Source of the DNA: Minisyncoccota bacterium
GTDB lineage: Bacteria; Patescibacteriota; Minisyncoccia; Phycocordibacterales; JABMNX01
Direction of reading: 5' to 3'
DNA: 64,000 nt
Assembly: GCA_965222715.1 (NCBI GenBank)
Contig: OZ244961.1
Location: 548,637 to 612,636, forward strand
Shown here: piece after piece, positions 10,596 through 22,011 of the stretch
Layout of the letters: each line of letters starts with the position of its first letter
Numbering within the stretch: position 1 is the stretch's first letter
Notes under the pieces: model-generated
What the model was told of the DNA's origin: nothing
What the model saw: the letters and a program-made list of their open reading frames with translations, nothing else
Database searches by the model: none
Made by a program: the position numbers and the translations under genes

Positions 10596-10991
10596 TCATT
10601 TATAAAACTCTTCTTTTAGTTCCTCTGGTTCGCCCAAGAGATTGTAGTCAATGAGTATCTCTTCTCCTTTCTTAATATCCCTTTTTGCATACCAAAAAGT
10701 ATCTCTTGATTCTGTGTTTGCATCTTCTGCGGAATGATTGAGATACCATCCAATATGCATGGAACCGAAATCGAGAGGACATAGGTAGTACTCTTCGCCA
10801 AAGTGGCAATATCCCCGAAACTCTTCCGGTATATCTTCTCGTTTTCGTTTAGTTACCCTCTCTTCAAATTTTTTTGCATCACCAAACGTTCTAAGAAATG
10901 TTCCTTTTTTAATATCGTGAGTAGCAAAAACCCCAATGCCGTACTTTGAAGGTTTTAATATAAAAGAAAACTCGTCTGTTTCACTTCTCAT
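10596..10991 (-). CDS. SET-domain protein (putative lysine methyltransferase)
   Basis: GIGVFATHDIKKGTFL, GWYLNHSAEDANTE (NHSxxPN-like) and GEEILIDYN (ELxxDY), in the order of minimal SET domains such as viral vSET. Confidence 0.65.
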   Translation of the reverse strand: MRSETDEFSFILKPSKYGIGVFATHDIKKGTFLRTFGDAKKFEERVTKRKREDIPEEFRGYCHFGEEYYLCPLDFGSMHIGWYLNHSAEDANTESRDTFWYAKRDIKKGEEILIDYNLLGEPEELKEEFYK

Positions 10992-11037: not shown

Positions 11038-11559
11038 TTAGTTAGTATTAGAATTTATTATACCTTTTACTCTTTCTAGAATATGAGACTCATCAACATC
11101 TGTTCGTTTATATACCTCTCCTTGTTTTTTCATCTGAGGAATTAAAAAATCTAAACTCTGCCACTCCACATCTGTTTCCCCCTCTATATCAGAAGTGTCT
11201 CTTTTAGATAAGTCTTGATCTTTTAATCTGCAAAGAAAATATAGAGTAGTTTTTTCTACTTCTACACCCTTGTGTTCAAAGTGGCTTTGAATACTTCCAA
11301 TATAATCAATCATTTCCGCTGTGATACCAAACTCTTCAAGCATTCCACGATGTAATGTTTCTTCTAGTGAATCATTTGGATGAAGGGTTTCTCTCATTAA
11401 TAAATAAAAGTCGTCCAACCCTTCATCCACCCAATATCCCTTTAACTGTTCTGTATTAAAATGGTGGCAACAAATCTGGTTCTCGTTATTAATAATAACC
11501 GCTCCCACTGAAACATGTTGCGGGTGTTCATTGTAACCTTGAAAATATGTTTTGCTCAT
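11038..11559 (-). CDS. NUDIX hydrolase
   Basis: Nudix box RETLHPNDSLEETLHRGMLEEFGI (Ex7REUxEExGU). Start set at the internal Met (MSKTYFQGY); the 38-aa N-terminal extension of the track ORF is a translation of the tRNA-His echo repeat. Confidence 0.6.
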   Translation of the reverse strand: MSKTYFQGYNEHPQHVSVGAVIINNENQICCHHFNTEQLKGYWVDEGLDDFYLLMRETLHPNDSLEETLHRGMLEEFGITAEMIDYIGSIQSHFEHKGVEVEKTTLYFLCRLKDQDLSKRDTSDIEGETDVEWQSLDFLIPQMKKQGEVYKRTDVDESHILERVKGIINSNTN

Positions 11560-11616
11560 ATCAAAAGTATACCAACTCTCTGGTGGAATTGTAGAAGAGT
11601 AGAATCTTCTACCGCG

Positions 11617-11636
11617 TGGGTGCCTACCGAGAATCG
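11617..11636. repeat. echo of tRNA-His 3' end (T-loop to acceptor), direct repeat
   Basis: gggtgcctaccgagaatcg is identical to 11805-11823 inside tRNA-His, 168 bp downstream of the tRNA 3' end. Confidence 0.7.
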
Positions 11637-11803
11637 GGGTCAAGTTGCTAAATTCGCTAGGCTCATTAAGCACTTCCTCCCCGGACTCGGCGACAAGCCC
11701 GAGTTAACACTCGTCTTGTATACCGCCTCCGTCTTTCAATTCTCGTAAACACTGACACACAGTAAGACCCCAACACTTTCGTGTCAGGGCCTAACTGCAT
11801 GTT

Positions 11804-11877
11804 GGGTGCCTACCGAGAATCGAACTCGAATTTGAGGTTCCACAAACCTCCGTAATAACCGTTATACCATAGGCACC
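11804..11877 (-). tRNA. tRNA-His (GTG) with encoded G-1
   Basis: rc reads GGTGCCTATGGTATAACGGTTATTACGGAGGTTTGTGGAACCTCAAATTCGAGTTCGATTCTCGGTAGGCACCC. Anticodon loop TTGTGGA, G-1:C73 pair, cloverleaf stems check out. CCA not encoded. Confidence 0.8.
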
Positions 11878-11891
11878 ATATCTGCCTGCCC

Positions 11892-11921
11892 ATAAACGCC
11901 AAGAGTACTCTTGGCGTTTAT
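11892..11921. repeat. 30-nt perfect palindrome (copy 1 of 2), probable bidirectional terminator
   Basis: ataaacgccaagagtactcttggcgtttat, identical to 47723-47752. Overlaps the stop codon of the PduO gene. Confidence 0.7.
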
Positions 11922-12475
11922 GTATAGCTTGGCGACTCCTCGACTATACCAGAAAGATGGTTCGTAAGTCGAGCGAGTGCATAGAGAAGTGATGAAAGTC
12001 GATTAAGGTATGCAAGCGACCACTCACCCATTTCTCGTTCACCACTTTCAACCACTTCAACTACTCGCCGCTCAGCACGACGCGAAAGTGTGCGTGCTAT
12101 ATCAAATCGAGAAGCTAATTCAGTACCTCCAGAAATAAAAAATGAAGTGATTGGTGGTAGTTCTTTTTCTGCTCCATGAATAAGGGCTTCTGCGTCACGT
12201 AGTTTCTGCTCATACAGAGTCTTATCAGCACCAGCAAGCTCAGCTTGAATAATAAAAAGATTTTCTTGAATCGTATGTACAATATGTTCAAATGATTGGC
12301 TGTTTAGAGAGAAGCCACTTTCAGCACTCGCCACTTTACACAACCCAAGAAATGAATTTACCTCATCAAGCGTACCGAGGGCTTCGGCAACGGGTGACGC
12401 CTTAGAGATACGCTTCCCTTTCTCTGTATCAAATACCTTTGTTGTTCCTTTGTCTCCTTTTCCTGTAAAGAGCAT
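11918..12475 (-). CDS. ATP:cob(I)alamin adenosyltransferase, PduO type
   Basis: MLFTGKGDKGTTKVFDTEKGKRISKASPVAEALGTLDEVNSFLGL matches the PduO/MMAB N-terminus (TxxGDxGxT...R..K.....E.xGxxDELNxxxG). Confidence 0.75.
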   Translation of the reverse strand: MLFTGKGDKGTTKVFDTEKGKRISKASPVAEALGTLDEVNSFLGLCKVASAESGFSLNSQSFEHIVHTIQENLFIIQAELAGADKTLYEQKLRDAEALIHGAEKELPPITSFFISGGTELASRFDIARTLSRRAERRVVEVVESGEREMGEWSLAYLNRLSSLLYALARLTNHLSGIVEESPSYT

Positions 12476-12482
12476 ATATTAA

Positions 12483-13310
12483 TTACCAGTGTACTTCATC
12501 ACACACATCGCACTTTTTAAACTCACTATGATCAACAAAGAAGATTGCAACCCACCGAGAGACATCATGAGCAACCTCTTTATTTAATTTTGGATCAACA
12601 ACATGAAGTGACGGTGCAAAATCAACATCTGTTATTTTGTACCAATTCAATCCAGGAAACATTTCTACCTCATCTTCGCGTGAGGTAACCGGTTTTAAGT
12701 CATCAAGCGAGTGACCAACCAAAAGTCCAGGACCGCTCTGCGCAACTGGAAGCGTGCACCCACCACTATCAAAATGCTCAGTTAAGTAAAGGTGTGTATC
12801 GGGGCTCGGTGCACTTGTTCCGTAGCGAATAAACCGAAGTGCTGAGTATGTTGGATATGGTGAATTATCTGTATAAATCTTACTACGAATATCAGGGTAT
12901 CCACTTTCAAGTACCTCAACAAAACCATTGAACATATCGCACGCCTCTTCATACATACGATGCATTGCTTGAAGCATTTCAGTTGCTTCAGGACCACCCT
13001 TACTCTCTTTCTGTAAACGATCTTTATATGTAGGGTTATACTGAAACCAATCAATATCAGCTGGCTTACTGTCGTAGACACTGTAATGTTTGAAACCAAC
13101 TTCATTACACTTATTCTCTCCTAACGGAACAGGAAGAGAGAATTTCTCCTTTACCTCAGCAGGAAGACGGGTGAACGCAATAAATGTTTCTGCAGTTCTA
13201 TCAATCACCCCATCACTAAATGAAAACGGAATACGCACGTACGCATCGTTCTTTAACTGCTCTTTTGCTTTTACTAACGTAAGCATATTATTCAAAAGTA
13301 TTTCCTGCAT
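12483..13310 (-). CDS. 2-oxoglutarate/Fe(II)-dependent oxygenase-like protein (split paralog)
   Basis: EHFDSGGCTLPVAQSGPGLLV (HxD...GG.L..Q..GLQV facial-triad block of IPNS/ACCO-type oxygenases), then HVVD... and HDVSRWVAIFF (distal His plus RxS-like). C-terminus CDVCDEVHW. Paralogous to the C-terminal half of 18705-19916. Confidence 0.55.
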   Translation of the reverse strand: MQEILLNNMLTLVKAKEQLKNDAYVRIPFSFSDGVIDRTAETFIAFTRLPAEVKEKFSLPVPLGENKCNEVGFKHYSVYDSKPADIDWFQYNPTYKDRLQKESKGGPEATEMLQAMHRMYEEACDMFNGFVEVLESGYPDIRSKIYTDNSPYPTYSALRFIRYGTSAPSPDTHLYLTEHFDSGGCTLPVAQSGPGLLVGHSLDDLKPVTSREDEVEMFPGLNWYKITDVDFAPSLHVVDPKLNKEVAHDVSRWVAIFFVDHSEFKKCDVCDEVHW

Positions 13311-13662
13311 CTCTCCACCCACGCAATCCTTCTCTGTAGCACGAGACGTTTGTATATCCTGAACGCGCTAAACACATTGCGGCCATGTATGAGAGTCCAC
13401 AACCAAGACTACCGGAGTATGTGGTGACATATACTTCTTTATTCTCACCAAACTTCTTTTTAAACTTTGAGAGAAATACTGTTTCAATGTCGAGTATTTT
13501 TCCATGCTCATCCTTTTCAGAATAATCTTTCTGGTACGATATATTCTCCGCACCAGGAATATGATGTGCATCATAACTCCCTTTTGAAAGCGTATCGACA
13601 ATAATATCGCCACGTGTAAGACGTTTTTTAAATTCTTCTGTGGTGATGATGTCGATATGCAT
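13288..13662 (-). CDS. single-domain rhodanese (sulfurtransferase)
   Basis: AHHIPGAENI and the active-site Cys loop VTTYSGSLGCGLSYMAAMCL. Overlaps the 5' end of the oxygenase gene by ~20 nt, suggesting an operon with coupled translation. Start at the internal Met MHIDII. Confidence 0.65.
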   Translation of the reverse strand: MHIDIITTEEFKKRLTRGDIIVDTLSKGSYDAHHIPGAENISYQKDYSEKDEHGKILDIETVFLSKFKKKFGENKEVYVTTYSGSLGCGLSYMAAMCLARSGYTNVSCYREGLRGWRDAGNTFE

Positions 13663-13734
13663 ATTGAAATGTATCCAGTAGTGTAGCATACAAAGAAAAA
13701 GCCGGAGTGTTCGAGAGAACACTCCGGCGCAGCG

Positions 13735-14556
13735 TTACCGATTCCACGGAATTACCTTTTTCTCCAAGACCCAGATGAGGATCCAGGTTGTGATCCCACA
13801 TAGAGCAAGGAGTACCGTCCCCGAGATAATCATAGAGACGATAGGAATCTGGTTTGCAGCATGAATGAGACTTCCAACCCCGTACTGCCTATTCACCCCC
13901 TCCGAAAGGACCAGCATCAGCCAGCACACAGGAGACGCGAGCAGAAGACCGAGAAACATTCGAGGCAGAAGCGCGGGCATGATATGCCAATACAACTGCC
14001 ACCTGCTCGGACCCATGATAGCAATGTCTGCCATCAGCTCTCGGGTGTGCCTATCTTTTCCATAGAAGAGCTTGTATGAGCCCTGGAACGATAGGAGGAG
14101 TTGGTAGAGGAACGTTGCCCATATGCTGATTCCGTACTTCGGCCCCTCGTCAATACCCAGCCAGATGATCATGAGATACAAGACTGAGATCTTTGAGAAC
14201 GTCAGAAGAAACGGGATGACCACAATTGCACAGAACCGCGCATACGGAAACAGAGCAATGAGGATACCCATCGGAAACCCAATAAGGGTTCCGAACACCA
14301 GCCCCACACCAACTCGCTTGAAGCTCGCGAAAAGATGTTCAGGTAGTTGACCCCGCTCAAGAAGACGCACGAAGTCACCATACATCTCTGACGGACTTGC
14401 AAACAAGGACGAAATTGCCCCTACATCTCTCCCCACTTGCCACGCATAAAGTAGCGCAGTCATAAGAAGAAGATAGAACGCAACCCCCAAAAGGATTGGG
14501 GGGTTCGGCCCGACTACATGTGCAATCGGGCCGTCATTTTTTTGTCGTACCCACAT
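13735..14556 (-). CDS. ABC transporter permease
   Basis: 6-TM protein with the EAA-like loop ELMADIAIMGPSRWQLYWHIMPALLP. Confidence 0.65.
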   Translation of the reverse strand: MWVRQKNDGPIAHVVGPNPPILLGVAFYLLLMTALLYAWQVGRDVGAISSLFASPSEMYGDFVRLLERGQLPEHLFASFKRVGVGLVFGTLIGFPMGILIALFPYARFCAIVVIPFLLTFSKISVLYLMIIWLGIDEGPKYGISIWATFLYQLLLSFQGSYKLFYGKDRHTRELMADIAIMGPSRWQLYWHIMPALLPRMFLGLLLASPVCWLMLVLSEGVNRQYGVGSLIHAANQIPIVSMIISGTVLLALCGITTWILIWVLEKKVIPWNR

Positions 14557-14629
14557 TACACACCTCCAGATGTTTCCTCATTGGAAAGAAAAAGAACAAA
14601 AGAGGTTCAGTAGAGCCCTCGCAAGAACG

Positions 14630-15673
14630 CTACTGAACCCGAATACCGCTTTCGTCAAAGACGTGTAGATGAGCTGGATCAATTGCAACCAGACACTCAC
14701 CAGAGAGTGGCGAGGCTGTGTGCGCTTCCATGGTTTCGCCCGAACGAAGCCGTAGTGAAACCTTGAAATGTGAACCAAAAAACCTACACGACTCAACTTG
14801 TGCAAGGATACCGGCCGAGTTATCCCGAGATACTTCTTGTACCGAGAGATGCTCTGGACGGATACCACACCACTTCGCTCCTTTCACGTTACCGATCTGG
14901 GAGAGTACCCCAAGAGGCACTGACGTCATGTCGCCAATAAATTCAGCGACAAAACGATCGTGTGGAGATTGGTAGAGTTCTTGATATGACCCGACCTGTC
15001 TCACTCGCCCACCATCCATGACCACGATGGAATCAGCCAACTCAGCTGCCTCCTCTTGGTTGTGGGTAACGTAGAGAATTGTCTGCCTGAGATCAGAGAA
15101 CAGCTCTTTAAGCAACACCCTGATTTCTTTTTGAAGTGGCTCATCAAGAAAGGTAAGTGGCTCATCAAGAAGAACTGCGCCAACCTGAGGAACCAGCACC
15201 TTTGCAGCAATACCCACTCGCTGACGTTCTCCTCCCGAAAGTTCTTTCGGATACTTATTGAGGAGGTGCGTGATGCCCACTTTTTGAGCAGCCTCACGCA
15301 CCACAGCAGTGCACACCTTTCCTGAAACATCAATCCCAGAAAAAACGAGCCACAGCTGTATATTCTTGAGGACCGTTAGATGATCCCATAGAGGAGTTGA
15401 CTGCGAAAGCAGACTCATGCTCCGTGTCTTGGGCGCTGTGTGAGTAACATCTCTGCCATCAATCAACACAGCGCCATTGGATGGCATTTGCAGCCCGGCA
15501 ATACTCCACAAAAGTGTTGTTTTGCCACACCCTGATGGGCCAAGGAGAACAGTTGTTTTTTTTGCTTCGATCGCAATTGAGACATCACGAACCGCGGTAA
15601 TGACTTCCTGCGTCGGACGGAACCACCGTCCACGTACAGGGAACGCAACCGAGAGGTTGCGCGTTTCAATGTG
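14630..15673 (-). CDS. ABC transporter ATP-binding protein with C-terminal TOBE-like domain
   Basis: Walker A GPSGCGKTT, signature LSGGERQRVGIA, Walker B LLDEP. The ~120-aa C-terminal extension resembles PotA/CysA/FbpC-type regulatory domains. Start at the internal Met MHIETRNL. Confidence 0.7.
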   Translation of the reverse strand, partial: HIETRNLSVAFPVRGRWFRPTQEVITAVRDVSIAIEAKKTTVLLGPSGCGKTTLLWSIAGLQMPSNGAVLIDGRDVTHTAPKTRSMSLLSQSTPLWDHLTVLKNIQLWLVFSGIDVSGKVCTAVVREAAQKVGITHLLNKYPKELSGGERQRVGIAAKVLVPQVGAVLLDEPLTFLDEPLQKEIRVLLKELFSDLRQTILYVTHNQEEAAELADSIVVMDGGRVRQVGSYQELYQSPHDRFVAEFIGDMTSVPLGVLSQIGNVKGAKWCGIRPEHLSVQEVSRDNSAGILAQVESCRFFGSHFKVSLRLRSGETMEAHTASPLSGECLVAIDPAHLHVFDESGIRVQ

Positions 15674-15834
15674 CATGGCGCACCTCCAAGTTACATGATT
15701 ACTAACTTCAGCTACTATAGATACTTTCAGTTTAATTGTCAAAAAATATTGAAAAGAAGACGTGACAAAAGAAAAACGCGCCGCTAGCTTCCTAGCGGCG
15801 CGTTGGTATCCTGACTCATTCTCGAGAGAATACC

Positions 15835-16959
15835 TTAGTTGCTCCGACTGAGGGCCCTGTCGGCAATCCGAAGGTTTTCGACACCTCCGACATAGACACC
15901 GTAGTCAGCCATAACCTCAGGGTCAGCCGTGCAGCCGCCCATATTGGTAACGATGCGATCGATCATCTCATCGATGGCCGGCTCGTACATTTCTCCATAC
16001 TTGTCGAGTGAAATGTAGAGCTCGTTCGCCAAAGCAGTGCGGAATTCGGGAACGAGACGTCGCTTCTTAATATCCTCAACTGCTCGCTGCATTCCCCGAC
16101 AGAACATGTCGGCCAGCTCCTCTCCACGTTCAGTTTCGTAGAAACTCGCCATCATGACGATTCCAGACTCGGGAAATGGGCGAAACTGATCCGAGTTAAG
16201 GATGACTGCGTAGCCTTCGGTTTGCGCACGGAGATGAAACGGCGCCGCAACAACCGCAAGGTCGGTTACTCCATCCTTCATGCCAGCGTAGCGCTTACCA
16301 GATGCACCGAGCTGTACTCCGTAGACCACGTTTTCTCCGTGATCAGGAACAGTACCAGCAGAAACTGCTTCTCGATACATTTCCCGAGTGCCACAGAAGA
16401 ATGCGACCGGCGCTTCGCCAGCAGCGTTGAGCTCCTGGTTTTTGTCGACAACGTAGGCGATCAGGATGCCAGTCGCTGTGTTACGCGACGTTTCTTGGTT
16501 GATGATCGCATGCTGACGCTCCGTAACATAGAGACCCGGCTCGCAGAGCGACACTGAGATCGATACATCGCGAAGGACATTCTCGACAGATCCGACCATG
16601 TAGAGCCCTCTTCCTTGAGGGCCAATTAGGACATAGTTGTGTCCTGTCGAGAGTACGCTGGTGAGAACACAGTCGTCACCGCCGACGATCGAACACCCGA
16701 AGACGCGCTCGATTGAATTCGAGGCGCGTGCCTGACCTGAATTGAGCGCAGCAAACTGCTGGCCGGCGTCAGAGATTTTGAGGATGGTGACTTCTTCGTC
16801 GAAGAAGTCATTTTTGGCGGCGTAGTCAGGGACAAATCCTGCAGTCCACCACGTGTCCCAGATGACATAGCCGATTTGATCATCAGCGTATGCTTTCGAG
16901 GGGAGTACCGCAATCATCGCAACCGCGATGACAACGGCAAGAGTGCGAAGCGTATGCAT
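15835..16959 (-). CDS. ABC transporter periplasmic substrate-binding protein
   Basis: N-terminal signal peptide MHTLRTLAVVIAVAMIAVLPSKAYA, ~370 aa, directly downstream of the ATPase and permease. Subfamily not assignable by eye. Confidence 0.55.
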   Translation of the reverse strand: MHTLRTLAVVIAVAMIAVLPSKAYADDQIGYVIWDTWWTAGFVPDYAAKNDFFDEEVTILKISDAGQQFAALNSGQARASNSIERVFGCSIVGGDDCVLTSVLSTGHNYVLIGPQGRGLYMVGSVENVLRDVSISVSLCEPGLYVTERQHAIINQETSRNTATGILIAYVVDKNQELNAAGEAPVAFFCGTREMYREAVSAGTVPDHGENVVYGVQLGASGKRYAGMKDGVTDLAVVAAPFHLRAQTEGYAVILNSDQFRPFPESGIVMMASFYETERGEELADMFCRGMQRAVEDIKKRRLVPEFRTALANELYISLDKYGEMYEPAIDEMIDRIVTNMGGCTADPEVMADYGVYVGGVENLRIADRALSRSN

Positions 16960-17095
16960 AACGTACCTCTCTTTCTTTTCTGAATGTTACGGATTCTGCT
17001 TCAAACTAATCCAAAACGATAGTAGCATATACTCACAGTTGCGCAAGAAAAAGACCCGCAAGTAGCTAGCTTGCGGGTCGTTAAAGAGCATACGG

Positions 17096-18589
17096 CTAAA
17101 ACGCAGTAACCCCACGATTAGCCCATCTGCCAGGATCCATATGGTGACATAGTTTCCGTTGCCACGAGACCAACTCATTAATGCTTAAGTGGTCGGTTCG
17201 CATGGTTGGGGTGAACTTTGTAACCAAACTTGAATGCGGATCATCGGGCATTAAACCAGAGCGCTTGTACGCGTCGGTGAGAGGTATCCCGGGGAACGGA
17301 ATCAGTACTGTTGGATTTATTGAGAGACGAACTTCAGGATTTTCTTTTTGAAGAGTCCTCTTTAATTCCGCAAGTGCCTCATCAAGCCGGCTCAAAGATT
17401 CGTGAGAGTCTTCTCGCAGTCCGATAATGACCCCAAAAAGAAGGTCTGGCGCACCAGAGCGAACGATCGCTTTGCACATCTCAACGACACCTCTCCAGTG
17501 CATCAGCTTTTGATAACGCTCAGTTCCCTCAAGTGGTCGCTCAAGTGGAATAAACGCCTGGATGCATTGTTCTCCGTAGACCGCCTGAACCAGCTCCACG
17601 TCCGGAGTCAGATCGCTCTCTTCTCTAATACGGAGGGTGCGATCGATACTGACCCCTTTGGTGAGTTTTGAGATTTCGATGCCGTTACGAAACATCCACG
17701 ACAACCCCCTTTCACGGAACTGTCGCATCGTCTCGAACACAACATCACGACCCCCCTCCCAAAGCAGACGTCCGAGAAACTGGTCGGACATGGTGTTTAC
17801 CGTACGTGCACCAGAGAGACACTGAAGCTCGAGCCACCGCCCCACAACATCAGGAGACATGTAGCTGTAGGAAAGTCCGTACGGGCCATTTCGACGAGTC
17901 ATACAGAAGTCACACGCCTGATCACATCCATAATCGAGCACCAAACTGGTGAATGGAAAGCGATCTTGAGGTAGTGTGTCACGCCACCGATTCTCGAGAA
18001 GTCCACGCACTTGTTCGACTGAAGGAAGTTGCCAGTTGTTTGGAGTGAGTCTCCATGAACCAGCGACCACCTGACCAACGCCTTGTATGTGTGCGCGAAT
18101 CGGTTTCTCAGTTGAACCAGTGAGAGCGATCTCAATTGCACCAGCATTACTTCCGCCACTTTTATCAAGCACAACAACTGTGGCTCCTGCTTGCAGGTAC
18201 CTCTCAGGTTGTGCAATGGCATCAGTTCCACCGACTACGACTTTTTTATTATTTTTTGAGAGAAACTCGATGACCCACAGGACAATCGCCTGCTCCATAT
18301 GAAAATTCGACGTAATACCAAACACGTCGAACTGATCAAGTGGAATGTCTTCAAGTCTCTTGCCTAAGGCAATTGGGTGAAGCTTCTTACCATTCCAAGA
18401 AACCGAATCAAACGCGTGGACGTGGGTACCGTCACGCATACTGAAACGAGTCACAGAATGACCAGCTGCTTCAAGCGACCCAATAAGCGCCTGTGGAGTC
18501 GACCCAATGAGAATTGAGTCTGTAAAGTTTTTTCCTTCATCGTCACGTAAAAGTGCGACGGGAGTCTGAATGAGACATATGTGCGCCAT
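17096..18589 (-). CDS. cobalamin-binding radical SAM enzyme (class B)
   Basis: N-terminal Rossmann-like B12-binding region (ICLIQTP...VVVGGTDAIAQPE), then the radical-SAM cluster motif LDYGCDQACDFCMTRR (CxxxCxxC). The track ORF extends to 18622. Confidence 0.6.
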   Translation of the reverse strand: MAHICLIQTPVALLRDDEGKNFTDSILIGSTPQALIGSLEAAGHSVTRFSMRDGTHVHAFDSVSWNGKKLHPIALGKRLEDIPLDQFDVFGITSNFHMEQAIVLWVIEFLSKNNKKVVVGGTDAIAQPERYLQAGATVVVLDKSGGSNAGAIEIALTGSTEKPIRAHIQGVGQVVAGSWRLTPNNWQLPSVEQVRGLLENRWRDTLPQDRFPFTSLVLDYGCDQACDFCMTRRNGPYGLSYSYMSPDVVGRWLELQCLSGARTVNTMSDQFLGRLLWEGGRDVVFETMRQFRERGLSWMFRNGIEISKLTKGVSIDRTLRIREESDLTPDVELVQAVYGEQCIQAFIPLERPLEGTERYQKLMHWRGVVEMCKAIVRSGAPDLLFGVIIGLREDSHESLSRLDEALAELKRTLQKENPEVRLSINPTVLIPFPGIPLTDAYKRSGLMPDDPHSSLVTKFTPTMRTDHLSINELVSWQRKLCHHMDPGRWANRGVTAF

Positions 18590-18704
18590 TTTTTCACCTC
18601 CTTCCTGAGGATATTCTGGCATATATCTAATATGTTAGTGTAGATGAAACAAATAACGTGTCAATAAAAAAGCGGCGCCACTGGCGCCGCTTGAGTTTCC
18701 GGTA

Positions 18705-19916
18705 CTAGAATCGCACCGAATGAGTGTCACCGCAGATAGTGCAGTAACCCTCATGGTAGTGTGTGGCCAAAAAGACGATGGACCAGCGCGCAACATCCTC
18801 ATCAAGTCCATCAAACGGACACTGGAGGACATCGTGCCATTGGGGCACCATCGACGAGTGGGTCACACGAAAGAGCTCGAGTGCAGGAAAGATGAACGGT
18901 TCATACGGAGCGCCTTCTTTTGGAAAGTGAAGGTTTTCGTCAGAAGAACCGAATCGGAACCCTTGAGCGTTTTCTCCGAGCATAATGTCCCAACTACCTG
19001 GGTCGAAGTGTGGACGACAGAGTGACATCTTCCCAGTTCTCGGGTCAACATCTGCGTAGGGGTACCTGAAGAAAGAGACGGACGAGCGCGACTTCTTTCC
19101 TTCCGGGAAGAAGGTATTCACAAGGTTGGGAAAAGTAGCACTCATTGTCTCGATCACATCCCTAAATGCACACTCTGCATCTTCGTACAGTACCCGGGCG
19201 GCTTCCGCAAATGCTTGAGCTTCGGGATACTGCTCCATCTCAGAAGCAAAGACCTCTTCAAACCCAGGTCCGTACATGAATTGGGCCTGTGTTGGACGAC
19301 CCATTTCTTTTTGTGGGACTGAGCGAAACCCAATCTCTTCACAGAGATGAGAGGGAGCTGATCCTTCAGGCAAGACAAAAGATTGCATCACTTCGATCGG
19401 CAGCTGAAGAAACTCAACAAACGCTTCTCCGGCCCTCGTTGCGTTTTGAGGGTTGCCCAGTTGAACGGGCGCGCAACCTTCCTCAAGAATCGCTTGAGTA
19501 ACAGGGTCGTTCACCAGGAGATCTGATTCGGGAAGGAGGAAGTTTGCAGATGGAGGAGTAATCTCTCCACCAGCCAAAATCCATCCGCGAACCCCATCAG
19601 TGACCTGAATCACGTCTTCGTACCCATGTTCAAGAAGCGCAAAGGCAGCCATATAGGCAAGCCCGCACCCAGACTGCTCTGAGAACACGAAGATTCGAGC
19701 GCTCTTCGGTACGTTAAGCAGCATGAAACGTTCCATGAAAGAGTTTCTGCTGCTTCCCTTGAAAATGGAGCCGTACCAGACATTGTGCGCACCAGGAATA
19801 TGGTGCGCACGGAAGGCAGATTCTCGACTGGCGTCGATAATGACATCAGAGTCTTTTACATCGGCAAGAACCGATTGTGCAGACCACGTCTTTGGCGTAA
19901 CCGGTGCTGTAGTCAT
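18705..19916 (-). CDS. fusion protein: N-terminal rhodanese + C-terminal 2OG/Fe(II)-oxygenase-like domain
   Basis: Rhodanese part AHHIPGAHNV...IFVFSEQSGCGLAYMAAFALLEHGYEDV...GVRGW, near-identical in pattern to the 13288-13662 rhodanese. Oxygenase part RPHFDPG (HxD) ... HDVLQCPFDGLDEDVARWSIVF (H-x10-RxS spacing as in ACC oxidase), C-terminus CTICGDTH. Confidence 0.6.
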   Translation of the reverse strand: MTTAPVTPKTWSAQSVLADVKDSDVIIDASRESAFRAHHIPGAHNVWYGSIFKGSSRNSFMERFMLLNVPKSARIFVFSEQSGCGLAYMAAFALLEHGYEDVIQVTDGVRGWILAGGEITPPSANFLLPESDLLVNDPVTQAILEEGCAPVQLGNPQNATRAGEAFVEFLQLPIEVMQSFVLPEGSAPSHLCEEIGFRSVPQKEMGRPTQAQFMYGPGFEEVFASEMEQYPEAQAFAEAARVLYEDAECAFRDVIETMSATFPNLVNTFFPEGKKSRSSVSFFRYPYADVDPRTGKMSLCRPHFDPGSWDIMLGENAQGFRFGSSDENLHFPKEGAPYEPFIFPALELFRVTHSSMVPQWHDVLQCPFDGLDEDVARWSIVFLATHYHEGYCTICGDTHSVRF

Positions 19917-20084
19917 GTGTAAACCTCTTTTTCATCTAGTTATTGCACATAGTAGCATCGCACCTCTAACCAAGAGTATTGATGCTTCTATTTCTAAAAA
20001 CCAGTATCTTGTTATTTTGTATAAAAGTCAATTACACCAGCCACATTGCGAAAGCGTCTATGCAGTGGCATCATACACACTACT

Positions 20085-20882
20085 ATGGAGATAGATTCCT
20101 CACACCCATACACACTCATTGAAAACATACGTAACGAGAAACACGCGACGTTATATAAGGACCTTTGGGGTGACACAACATATACTCACCTCATGGATGT
20201 CCCCCAACTTCACTGGAAAGATTTAGTAATGTGCCCTTTTAAAAAACGATTGTATCGAGATGATAATCATTTTGTACATATTGCATACAAAGATGATGAG
20301 GCCTGTCTTATCGCAAGAACAACAAAAGATATTGTCCACGAACTATATGGAGATACGAGTAAAAAAAGACCACTTGTAGCATTTCATTACCGACACCACA
20401 CAATAGAAAAAAGTGAGTGGTTTTATGAACACAATCTATTACCCCTTCCTGCTATTGATGACCTACATGCAGCAGTTGAAATTGCACGAATGTATGAAGT
20501 AGATACCCTCACCTGTGACACCCGTAGTCTCATGCAACTACAAACACATTTGCATAAACTACCCCTCACATCTGTGTACGTGGTAGATACTTTTTTTGAT
20601 GAAGAGGTAATAAAAAATATCTCTTCAAAATACGAAATAAGACTAATACTTGCACTTCCAGAAACTGGAACATTGGCGGTAAGTTGTCCAGAGAATACTC
20701 CAGGAAGCTATTTTCACCCCCACCACTCTACCATCCTTGAATATGGAAAATCACTTATAGCAACACGAAATGTATTGCTTCCAACACCAATTATTCGCTA
20801 CAACACTGGTATACCAACACAGAAAATTCAGGAAAGTATCTGTAGCTGCAACAGTAAAGAAACATTTACACTTCATGCATAA
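20085..20882 (+). CDS. PaaK/F390-synthetase-like paralog lacking the P-loop (hypothetical)
   Basis: C-terminal LLPTPIIRYNTGI...CSCNSKETFTLHA parallels YRTGDKGEL...CECGEKKTLIFHG of the downstream gene. No SGGTSG motif. Confidence 0.4.
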   Translation: MEIDSSHPYTLIENIRNEKHATLYKDLWGDTTYTHLMDVPQLHWKDLVMCPFKKRLYRDDNHFVHIAYKDDEACLIARTTKDIVHELYGDTSKKRPLVAFHYRHHTIEKSEWFYEHNLLPLPAIDDLHAAVEIARMYEVDTLTCDTRSLMQLQTHLHKLPLTSVYVVDTFFDEEVIKNISSKYEIRLILALPETGTLAVSCPENTPGSYFHPHHSTILEYGKSLIATRNVLLPTPIIRYNTGIPTQKIQESICSCNSKETFTLHA

Positions 20883-22011
20883 AGTAATATGTACAACAAA
20901 AAAAGATATTGAAGGGACTATTGTTGGATTGGATCAATATAAGCCAGGAGATGCGTCAGTAAAAGACCTCACACTTAAAGTAAGTGGTGGCACAAGCGGC
21001 GTACTTACTGTAGTTGTTGAGCAAAATGCAGTTGAGAGAAAGAAGAGACATTACACAGACAAAGCTCATGCACTCATACGACTTGGTGGGCAACGTACAA
21101 GCGCACTATCTGGCACGAATTTACTACTTCGTTACGCATCACACACTCGAGTACTTGCAATTGATGCAAAAGATTTGAGGCACCCAGCAATTGGCCACGC
21201 ATTAGCTGGGTTTGCCCCAACCGAACTCTATAGCATCCCGCTCTCTTTTTTAAGGACTGTTATGTACACACTGCGATTACACGATATGTCGTGGGCATTT
21301 CGTCGTGTGCGTTACATTCTATACTCAGGAGAATGGACAAGCGCAAAAGAAAAAGAAGAGATTCTTAAAGATTTTCCTAAACTTGAAGAAAGTGTTGATG
21401 AGTATGGATCAGCTGAGGCTGGACCGTATGCTGTGAGTTGTAAACATTTATCAAAAAAATATGAAAAAGAAGGACTCTTAGTATTTCATCCACACGAATC
21501 TGTTGGCTTATGGATTGATGGAGACAAAGGAGGTGGTGAAATTATTATATCTACTAATGAATTAAAAAATTACAGAACGGGAGATAAAGGAGAATTGAGA
21601 GAAGAGAAATGTGAATGCGGAGAAAAGAAGACATTAATATTTCATGGTCGCATCAATACCGATTACGTAGATTGTGCCGGTGCTATTTTTTCTATTAAAG
21701 ACCTCGAGCATGTCTTTAATTATTTATCAGATATTGTTTCCGACTACCAAATTATAGTGAGAGAACATATTGAAAACAAAACACCAAAAGGAAGTGTACA
21801 TATAAAGTTTGTACCAACAAGGGCGTATAAGAATCATTCAGATGTAACTACGTATGTTACTGAATTTGTACACAAACATCTTGCTGTAACCCCAACACGT
21901 ACACTTGGCGAGCTGGTTGAGCAAAAGATATTTACCCCAACAACAGCAGAAATAGTTTCTTCAATCTCAAAAAAGACTGATAAACGTGAAAGAATAAAGA
22001 AAGAAATTTAA
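20875..22011 (+). CDS. adenylate-forming enzyme, phenylacetate-CoA ligase (PaaK)/coenzyme F390 synthetase family
   Basis: VSGGTSGVLTVV (SGGTSGxP-type P-loop), YGSAEAGPYAVSC, YRTGDKGEL and GRINTDYVDCAGAIF blocks as in PaaK. Start ATG at 20875 overlaps the upstream stop (ATGCATAA), i.e. translational coupling. Confidence 0.55.
   Translation: MHKVICTTKKDIEGTIVGLDQYKPGDASVKDLTLKVSGGTSGVLTVVVEQNAVERKKRHYTDKAHALIRLGGQRTSALSGTNLLLRYASHTRVLAIDAKDLRHPAIGHALAGFAPTELYSIPLSFLRTVMYTLRLHDMSWAFRRVRYILYSGEWTSAKEKEEILKDFPKLEESVDEYGSAEAGPYAVSCKHLSKKYEKEGLLVFHPHESVGLWIDGDKGGGEIIISTNELKNYRTGDKGELREEKCECGEKKTLIFHGRINTDYVDCAGAIFSIKDLEHVFNYLSDIVSDYQIIVREHIENKTPKGSVHIKFVPTRAYKNHSDVTTYVTEFVHKHLAVTPTRTLGELVEQKIFTPTTAEIVSSISKKTDKRERIKKEI

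Follow-up and report, generated by a model that had tools for sequence, protein, structure and literature searches.

We analysed a stretch of 64,000 nucleotides from a Minisyncoccota bacterium (contig OZ244961.1 of assembly GCA_965222715.1, positions 548,637 to 612,636), here called the window. It holds two ancient paralogous copies of a module made of a rhodanese-fold unit and an oxygenase unit related to isopenicillin N synthase (IPNS). In one copy the two units form a single fused protein; in the other they are encoded by two adjacent genes. The three open reading frames (ORFs) concerned are present on the minus strand, at the positions given for them in an earlier note on this DNA. The fused and split copies bracket the genes of an ATP-binding cassette (ABC) importer.

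The fused protein (403 residues, P0001; 18705-19916, minus strand) consists of a rhodanese-fold N-terminal domain, a linker of about 15 residues, an IPNS-like Fe(II)/2-oxoglutarate (2OG) oxygenase domain and a CxxCxxxH tail. Its rhodanese-fold domain spans residues ~13-118 (19563-19880, minus strand), with Ser79 at the canonical catalytic-Cys site and Cys84 in the loop (SEQSGCGL). The oxygenase domain (18705-19514, minus strand) was recognised from invariant motif columns and from a profile alignment to the Caulobacter protein CC_0200 (PDB 3oox) and to thymine-7-hydroxylase (T7H). Its putative iron ligands are H303 (19010-19008), D305 (19004-19002) and H361 (18836-18834), all on the minus strand, as are an RxS motif (R377-W-S379), a fusion-specific Cys (C300, in LCRPHFD) and the tail residues C392, C395 and H399 (18743-18720). 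In the split copy, also on the minus strand, the stand-alone rhodanese-fold gene (13288-13662) encodes 124 residues from MHIDI. Its product matches Pfam Rhodanese and carries Ser83 at the canonical Cys site and Cys88 in the loop (YSGSLGCGLSY). Alternative starts lie at 13722 (the ORF) and at 13689, which is used in the public annotation and gives 133 residues. The stand-alone oxygenase gene (12483-13286) encodes 267 residues from ATG 13286, with alternative starts at ATG 13310 and GTG 13322. The latter is the publicly annotated start and yields the 279-residue protein P0003, whose numbering is used here for H183 (12776-12774), D185, H240 (12605-12603), R256 (12557-12555) and C271/C274/H278 (12512-12489).

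Each half of the fusion is homologous to a separate protein in the window, which is the Rosetta-stone pattern. In BLASTP comparisons, the stand-alone rhodanese aligned with fusion residues 24-116 (33% identity over 102 residues, E=3e-16), and the split oxygenase ORF (279 residues) aligned with fusion residues 161-399, the whole C-terminal part (26% identity over 241 residues, E=4e-25). Similarity is thus not confined to the rhodanese domains, and both paralogies proposed in the earlier note are borne out. Within the 64-kb window, no further copies of either domain were detected beyond two each. The conserved blocks that had been listed were found in part: the terminal CxxCxxxH is invariant in paralogues and orthologues, but the block written as HFD-GG reads HFDSGG in the split copy and HFDPGS in the fusion. 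The stretch from the distal His to the RxS-like motif had also been said to be about eight residues shorter in the split copy. This spacing is 16 residues in both copies, with no gap in the BLAST alignment. The apparent gap arose because the His of AHDVSRW was evidently mistaken for the distal His, which in the alignment is H240 (SLHVVD); the hint of functional divergence drawn from the supposed deletion goes with it.

The two genes of the split copy had been described as overlapping, which depends on choosing the longest ORF. Their junction reads GAA TAA T ATG CTT (13290..13284), with the rhodanese stop codon at 13290-13288 followed by the ATG at 13286. Starts at GTG 13322 or ATG 13310 would overlap the rhodanese gene by 35 or 23 nucleotides, respectively. 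Oxygenase orthologues have N-termini that align from the Met encoded at ATG 13286. Because the TAA-T-ATG junction is also kept, in identical form, in an orthologous locus of another genome (L002, see below), the true oxygenase start is probably ATG 13286, one base past the rhodanese stop. The split genes are tightly coupled, and their overlap is probably a start-codon artefact. In the split pair the rhodanese gene precedes the oxygenase gene, the same order as that of the domains in the fusion.

Relatives in which an oxygenase of this type is joined to or abuts a rhodanese form a subfamily that is extremely rare. A word-index search of 5.8 billion proteins returned only P0002, a fusion (39% identity), and P0004 and P0005, both of split type (49% and 41%); with the rhodanese as query, the same search returned only itself. 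An exhaustive profile search added P0008, a fusion (38-39% identity to P0001), and P0006, of split type. No relative was found in two metagenome scans, and a genome scan found only two loci. P0002 and P0004 belong to one Paceibacterota metagenome-assembled genome, NORP311 (GCA_016763615.1; loci L001 and L002). In L001, a pair of PaaK-like genes diverges from the fusion, which is followed by a binding protein, an ATPase and a permease up to the contig end. L002 starts with a truncated rhodanese gene, and the split oxygenase comes next. P0008 and P0006 belong to assembly CAZPQI01, in which one contig (L006) carries the fusion, a radical S-adenosylmethionine (SAM) protein, an S9 peptidase, a binding protein, an ATPase and a permease, and another contig (L005) carries the split pair. 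The L001 and L002 contigs are almost certainly adjacent in NORP311, placing the split pair after the permease as in the window, because the genes that follow the split pair in L002 (408, 327, 149 and 139 residues) directly follow the permease in L006. A split pair is also found in a fourth assembly, on a contig of 1.7 kb (L003).

Thus, three genomes (the window's, NORP311 and CAZPQI01) each carry both the fused and the split form, and three fusions and four split pairs are known in all. The split pairs always have the order rhodanese then oxygenase, with a 1-nucleotide spacer or a 4-nucleotide overlap, and the split rhodaneses in L002, L003 and L005 are 51-55% identical to the window gene. A rhodanese is joined or abutting in all seven subfamily members versus none of four stand-alone relatives from the wider oxygenase family. 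These four lie among unrelated housekeeping genes, and neither a rhodanese nor an ABC transporter is encoded nearby. The Rosetta-stone logic of the earlier note is strengthened by the two further genomes with both forms and by the fourth assembly with a split pair; it is sound and rests on three genomes. Because other genomes of the candidate phyla radiation (CPR) carry both versions in a largely syntenic cluster, the pairing appears to be selected and the duplication old; both forms persist in the three genomes at 39-55% identity. The further statement that the two activities act together stands as regards the pairing, which recurs across genomes. It also presumed a catalytic rhodanese, and that part is not supported, as each of the seven partners has Ser or Gly at the canonical Cys site. 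The iron ligands HxD...H, by contrast, proved invariant across both paralogues and their orthologues.

In the split oxygenase gene of CAZPQI01 (L005, 10028-10847), an 8-nucleotide frameshifting deletion relative to L003 was detected just before the distal His codon. It shifts the His, the Arg and the CxxCxxxH tail into another frame. This lesion is probably real, because a second assembly encodes the same truncated product of 236 residues, with one amino-acid difference.

Assignment of the oxygenase domain did not come from direct matches of the window proteins. In searches of Pfam, NCBIfam and PDB sequences, the split protein matched nothing, and neither copy reached PF03171 (2OG-FeII_Oxy) or PF14226 (DIOX_N) at E<=0.01. 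An exhaustive HMMER search with a five-sequence profile brought together, at E<=1e-3, 350 cluster representatives of a wider family. Most are stand-alone proteins of 260-280 residues, and one family member bears the source name "isopenicillin N synthase-like dioxygenase". Among 56 family members scanned, 26 matched PF03171 and 10 matched DIOX_N. In the PDB, a profile of these 56 members matched thymine dioxygenase (E=5e-12) and, more strongly, 3oox (E=4.6e-16), a putative 2OG-Fe(II) oxygenase, with the HxD, the distal His and the Arg aligned opposite their counterparts in 3oox and T7H. The AlphaFold model of the split oxygenase (predicted local distance difference test, pLDDT, 79; predicted template modelling score 0.83) matched ethylene-forming enzyme, the auxin dioxygenase AtDAO1, 3oox, DAOCS, IPNS and T7H with Foldseek probability 1.0 and E values of ~1e-9. 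In the fusion model, pLDDT exceeds 90 over most of residues ~140-390, and the top Foldseek matches are T7H, IPNS and 3oox; Foldseek probabilities of 1.0 were obtained with both models. The window oxygenases are 13-18% identical to solved structures. By its predicted fold, its family members and the profile-to-PDB search, the domain is an IPNS-like Fe(II)/2OG oxygenase, which upholds, as far as fold and motifs go, the name oxygenase given to it in the earlier note.

The iron triad (H183/D185/H240 in the split copy, H303/D305/H361 in the fusion) is invariant in the subfamily alignments and at least 90% conserved in the 56-member alignment. In addition, an Arg (R256/R377) and a strand Tyr (Y167/Y285, in LRFxxY) are conserved in both copies; in this clade of oxygenases the RxS motif and the strand Tyr serve to bind the distal carboxylate of 2OG. 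Because HxD...H, Arg and Tyr are all retained, both oxygenases are probably active iron enzymes.

Both window rhodaneses match Pfam Rhodanese (PF00581) above its cut-off of 22.2 bits, with 50 bits for the split protein and 35.5 bits for fusion residues 13-113. Their active-site loops are non-canonical. The earlier note had looked to the rhodanese catalytic Cys in both copies, and the canonical site turned out to hold Ser83 in the split protein and Ser79 in the fusion, where a HMMER alignment places Ser79 opposite the Cys of the YCGSGFRS motif in PDB 6mxv. The loop reads S-G-S-[LA]-G-C-G (within SGS[LA]GCGLSY) in the four split rhodaneses, S-E-Q-S-G-C-G in the window fusion and G-E-H-T-G-C-R in the P0002 fusion. 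In the P0008 fusion it reads S-D-T-A-G-N-K, with no Cys. The best PDB matches of both window rhodaneses are modules without Cys, namely residues 35-123 of 1uar and the VYDDGEG domain of 1yt8, which has Asp at the site. These features suggest that the rhodanese unit is unlikely to be a classical persulfide-forming sulfurtransferase. The annotation "rhodanese" should be read with caution here, as it does not imply sulfurtransferase activity when the catalytic Cys is lacking. A stand-alone rhodanese with a CASSGC loop in L005 is, at 44-47% identity, the closest relative of the split rhodaneses. It lies in a small group of genes (L005 5661-7504) together with a putative helix-turn-helix regulator, recognised by eye, and a small membrane protein ending in CDTC. 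The fusion rhodanese without a loop Cys (P0008) and the frameshifted split oxygenase occur in the same genome, CAZPQI01.

What separates the subfamily from its parent family is the rhodanese partner together with the CxxCxxxH tail. Among 154 proteins retrieved, this tail was present in only six, all intact rhodanese-associated proteins, and the frameshifted L005 gene still encodes it in its downstream frame. Another feature specific to the subfamily is a Cys in the N-terminal region (NKCNEVG, HLCEEIG). The tail is most likely a structural metal site of Cys3His type. As P0008 retains the tail without a loop Cys, a structural metal site fits better than a relay partner of the rhodanese Cys.

We built a neighbour-joining tree of the oxygenases (44 sequences, 263 columns, 200 bootstraps). 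The split clade received 91% support, the fusion clade 81%, and both together against the rest 57%. This tree and the exclusive shared CxxCxxxH tail support a single origin of the subfamily, with a duplication that would predate the divergence of the three genomes. The fusion rhodanese domains are 26-33% identical to the split rhodaneses. A rhodanese tree with 500 bootstraps included the stand-alone CASSGC rhodanese of L005 (rhd2) and, as outgroup, a GlpE sequence to which the distances are saturated; split plus rhd2 received 33%, split plus fusion 28% and fusion plus rhd2 30%. With regard to joint duplication of rhodanese and oxygenase, which the earlier note had named as a point to check, the oxygenase tree is compatible with co-duplication as a unit, whereas the rhodanese bootstraps are divided about evenly three ways with the third, stand-alone rhodanese. 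The subfamily itself emerged from the wider, stand-alone oxygenase family. The probable origin of the fusion is loss of the stop codon at a TAA-T-ATG junction between adjacent genes, rather than an origin of the split pair by fission: fusion is the more parsimonious course because gene order equals domain order and because the stand-alone state is ancestral in the wider family.

The fusion and its neighbours form a conserved cluster in a few CPR genomes, composed of the PaaK-like pair, the fusion, with or without a radical SAM gene, the binding protein, the ATPase and the permease. It is syntenic in the three genomes, with the CAZPQI01 split pair lying away from it. The permease gene of the window (13735-14556, minus strand) is weakly TauC/SsuC-like (TauC 57 bits, SsuC 54 bits, with cut-offs of ~345, 342 for TauC) and weakly matches BPD_transp_1; its orthologues are 45% (L001) and 43% (L006) identical. 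Next to it is the gene for an ABC ATPase with a TOBE domain (14630-15742, minus strand; ABC_tran 96 bits, TOBE_2), whose best named match is PhnT2 (231 bits, cut-off 458). The longest ATPase ORF starts at TTG 15742. The start of the L001 orthologue corresponds to ATG 15673 (MHIETRNLSV), which is likely the true start, and the extra 23 codons overlap a near-consensus promoter-like site at 15742-15714. The third importer gene (15835-16959, minus strand) encodes a putative lipid- or signal-anchored substrate-binding protein of 374 residues, recognised by its position and an N-terminal hydrophobic segment and with orthologues in L001 and L006. It had no family match, and its profile search against the PDB gave only a marginal ABC solute-binding protein match (E=0.34).

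A radical SAM protein of 508 residues (17096-18622, minus strand) has a CX3CX2C motif (C233, C237, C240) and a weak Pfam Radical_SAM match (19.6 bits). Its gene is present in the window and in L006, where the orthologue (54% identity) scores 25.4 bits, and is absent in L001. The protein has an N-terminal region of about 200 residues and shows only marginal similarity to B12-binding radical SAM enzymes. On the other side of the fusion are two overlapping, divergent genes on the plus strand (20046-20882, 278 residues; 20770-22011, 413 residues), conserved beside the fusion in the three genomes at 47-58% identity. Their overlap is not a frameshift artefact, because they are kept as two separate overlapping genes in all three. 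The 413-residue protein is a PaaK/F390-synthetase-like adenylate-forming enzyme by a weak NCBIfam match and by a profile match to phenylacetate-CoA ligase 9s3l (E=2.4e-8); no family was detected for the 278-residue protein. Profile-to-PDB searches of the radical SAM protein and the 278-residue protein gave no usable match.

Base composition differs sharply within this region. The five-gene block from permease to fusion (13735-19916) has a GC content of 0.49-0.54 and a GC content at third codon positions (GC3) of 0.46-0.59, versus a GC3 of about 0.26-0.36 in its flanks (the split pair, 12483-13662; the PaaK-like genes, 20046-22011; and the neighbourhood). Both borders are abrupt, and at the lower one there is a strong hairpin (13728-13701). 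GC3 is slightly raised in the orthologous blocks of L001 and L006 (0.32-0.43). This pattern suggests that in this genome the central block may be a recent xenologous replacement from a relative of higher GC content. The hairpin between the permease and the split rhodanese (13701-13728, minus strand) is terminator-like, with a 12-base-pair stem containing eight GC pairs and a T tail. Another terminator-like hairpin follows the fusion (18670-18692, minus strand), and between it and the radical SAM gene is a promoter-like site (18664-18637). GC-rich, T-tailed hairpins were also observed after the radical SAM gene (17079-17053) and after the binding protein gene (15804-15775), both on the minus strand. 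In total, four of the five high-GC genes have a strong hairpin behind them, and near-consensus promoter-like sites (18664-18637, 15742-15714) come after two of these hairpins. Terminator-like sites are enriched, with 17 found versus 9.3 expected.

Several known systems resemble this module in part. IPNS-like Fe(II)/2OG oxygenases with DIOX_N and 2OG-FeII_Oxy domains (CC_0200, 3oox; Neurospora T7H, 5c3p; IPNS; ethylene-forming enzyme) share with the window oxygenases the double-stranded beta-helix and an N-terminal helical part, as well as HxD...H, the Arg of the RxS motif, the Tyr of LRFxxY and a C-terminal segment past the core. Unlike them, the window proteins have no Pfam match of their own and possess the CxxCxxxH tail, the Cys in the N-terminal region and an obligatory rhodanese partner. 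Accounts in PMC9163753 and PMC12934615 include persulfide dioxygenase both fused to rhodanese and with a dissociated rhodanese in known operons. Such systems (Staphylococcus aureus CstB, fusions of persulfide dioxygenase and rhodanese, the dissociated rhodaneses of sqr-pdo operons) likewise combine a non-haem-iron oxygenase with a rhodanese, fused or separate. However, they have a metallo-beta-lactamase fold, a canonical rhodanese Cys and an sqr/pdo context, whereas the window proteins have a 2OG-oxygenase fold and lack that Cys. The window oxygenases had no lactamase_B match in Pfam, and the neighbours here are an ABC importer, a radical SAM protein, PaaK-like ligases and PduO rather than an sqr/pdo operon. 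A CstB-type persulfide dioxygenase-rhodanese fusion is ruled out by the different oxygenase fold and the absent catalytic Cys.

TauABCD and SsuEADCB resemble the locus in having a NitT/TauT-type importer beside an Fe(II)/2OG-type oxygenase, and TauC and SsuC are the best matches of the permease. TauABCD differs in that TauD belongs to the PF02668 family and that neither a rhodanese nor a duplicated oxygenase is present. No TauD match was found for the window proteins, and the TauC and PhnT2 matches are far below cut-off. The different oxygenase family and these low transporter scores rule out a TauABCD system. Non-catalytic rhodanese domains, such as the N-domains of two-domain thiosulfate/mercaptopyruvate sulfurtransferases (1uar 35-123), are the best matches of the rhodanese unit, which has Ser at the Cys site. 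Unlike them, most members of the subfamily have another Cys in the loop, and the partner is an oxygenase rather than a second, catalytic rhodanese.

No PDB chain spanning both domains was present among the Foldseek matches, and full-text literature searches for rhodanese with a 2OG or IPNS-type oxygenase returned no relevant precedent. Both folds are well known; their pairing is a new domain architecture and defines a new subfamily. If the pairing is functional, a rhodanese fold and an IPNS-like Fe(II)/2OG oxygenase would be combined in an architecture for which these searches gave no precedent. It would also point to importer-linked, oxygen-dependent chemistry in ultra-small CPR bacteria, whose metabolism is poorly understood. 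The three genomes with both fused and split forms provide a natural experiment, in which the interaction and the division of labour between paralogues are directly testable.

The function that we favour, at about an even chance of being right, combines three elements. The oxygenases would oxidise a small molecule delivered by the neighbouring importer, or ligase-activated derivatives of it, and the two paralogues might handle different steps or substrates. The rhodanese unit would act as a specialised partner, an accessory or adaptor subunit that assists in binding or presenting the substrate (an anionic or thiol-bearing group). The CxxCxxxH tail and the conserved Cys of the N-terminal region would form the Cys3His metal site and thereby fix the C-terminal lid of the oxygenase. 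A number of observations weigh against this proposal. A Cys lies five residues past the canonical site in six of the seven partners, which would allow a thiol-based role, and the same Cys occurs in the close stand-alone rhodanese that has the canonical Cys (CASSGC, L005 7163-7504). The AlphaFold model of the fusion is of low confidence in the rhodanese domain, the linker and the tail. We infer 2OG dependence of the oxygenases from their motifs; only the fusions have the Ser of RxS (RWS), which is replaced by Val in the split copy and by Ala in most wider-family members, and the motifs also occur in IPNS and ACC oxidase, neither of which uses 2OG. Finally, the fusion and the split pair are separate transcription units with strong hairpins between them, and GC3 is ~0.5 in the fusion block versus ~0.3 in the split pair. 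Because the units are separate and their base composition differs, co-function was deduced from conservation, not from co-transcription.

Four other explanations were considered. As the main rival, the module could belong to a sulfur relay, in which the displaced loop Cys carries a persulfide (or sulfite or thiosulfate) and the oxygenase oxidises an imported thiol, persulfide or organosulfur compound. It would then be a functional analogue, on a different oxygenase fold, of persulfide dioxygenase-rhodanese pairs or of TauABCD. We consider this unlikely, if worth taking seriously. The loop Cys, in a GC[GR]L context, is present in six of seven partners, including all four split rhodaneses, and the nearest stand-alone rhodanese relative has the canonical Cys. 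In the structural neighbour IPNS a thiolate substrate binds to the iron, and the best named matches of the permease are the taurine/sulfonate permeases TauC and SsuC, far below their cut-offs. The occurrence of persulfide dioxygenase fused to rhodanese and with a dissociated one, as related in PMC9163753 and PMC12934615, fits as well. However, the canonical catalytic Cys is missing from all seven partners, P0008 has kept all oxygenase motifs and the tail without a loop Cys, and the best PDB matches are rhodanese modules without Cys. Moreover, in the part of the cluster that was scanned we recognised neither sqr or pdo nor a cysteine desulfurase or any other sulfur gene. A bolder version, in which the rhodanese is a non-canonical sulfur carrier whose displaced loop Cys hands sulfane sulfur to the iron site or the Cys-rich lid for O2-dependent formation or cleavage of C-S bonds on an imported metabolite, seems to us very improbable. 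It is weakened because the catalytic Cys is missing, and we know of no O2-dependent C-S chemistry of the sulfane-sulfur kind in IPNS-like 2OG oxygenases. These bacteria are generally regarded as fermentative and oxygen-shy.

A biosynthetic tailoring cluster is a distinctly unlikely explanation. Here the ligases, the radical SAM protein, the oxygenases and the S9 peptidase of L006 would make or modify a secondary metabolite or peptide, with the rhodaneses as docking or carrier-like domains. Adenylating enzymes, a CX3CX2C radical SAM protein, two oxygenases and the L006 peptidase are indeed a set typical of tailoring pathways, but the transporter has the architecture of an importer (binding protein, TauC-like permease, TOBE ATPase), and the radical SAM and peptidase genes are not shared by all three genomes. 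We recognised no gene for a precursor peptide or a carrier protein, and the hosts have very small genomes (the source contig is 617 kb). It is also quite improbable, in our view, that the two units are not functionally coupled at all, the copies being simple duplicates or a horizontally acquired second copy, the adjacency of the rhodanese historical and the fusion a neutral read-through. The GC3 of the fusion block (0.46-0.59, versus 0.26-0.34 in flanks that include the split pair) suggests a separate, recent origin, and in CAZPQI01 the split oxygenase has suffered the frameshifting 8-nucleotide deletion and the pair has moved from the cluster. Against this, the presence of both forms in three genomes at 39-55% identity points to long purifying selection, rhodanese association is complete inside the subfamily (7/7) and absent outside it (0/4), and the stop-start junction is conserved.

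Some genes on the minus strand just downstream of the cluster were also recognised: a tRNA (11805-11876), a NUDIX hydrolase (11038-11673) and a small SET-domain protein (10596-10991). A stand-alone relative of the oxygenases (P0007, L008), near which NUDIX and SET genes occur, was evaluated as syntenic with the split copy and rejected, as the match is limited to the SET genes (30% identity). Immediately downstream of the split pair, in this window only, lies a gene for a PduO-type cobalamin adenosyltransferase (11918-12475, minus strand).

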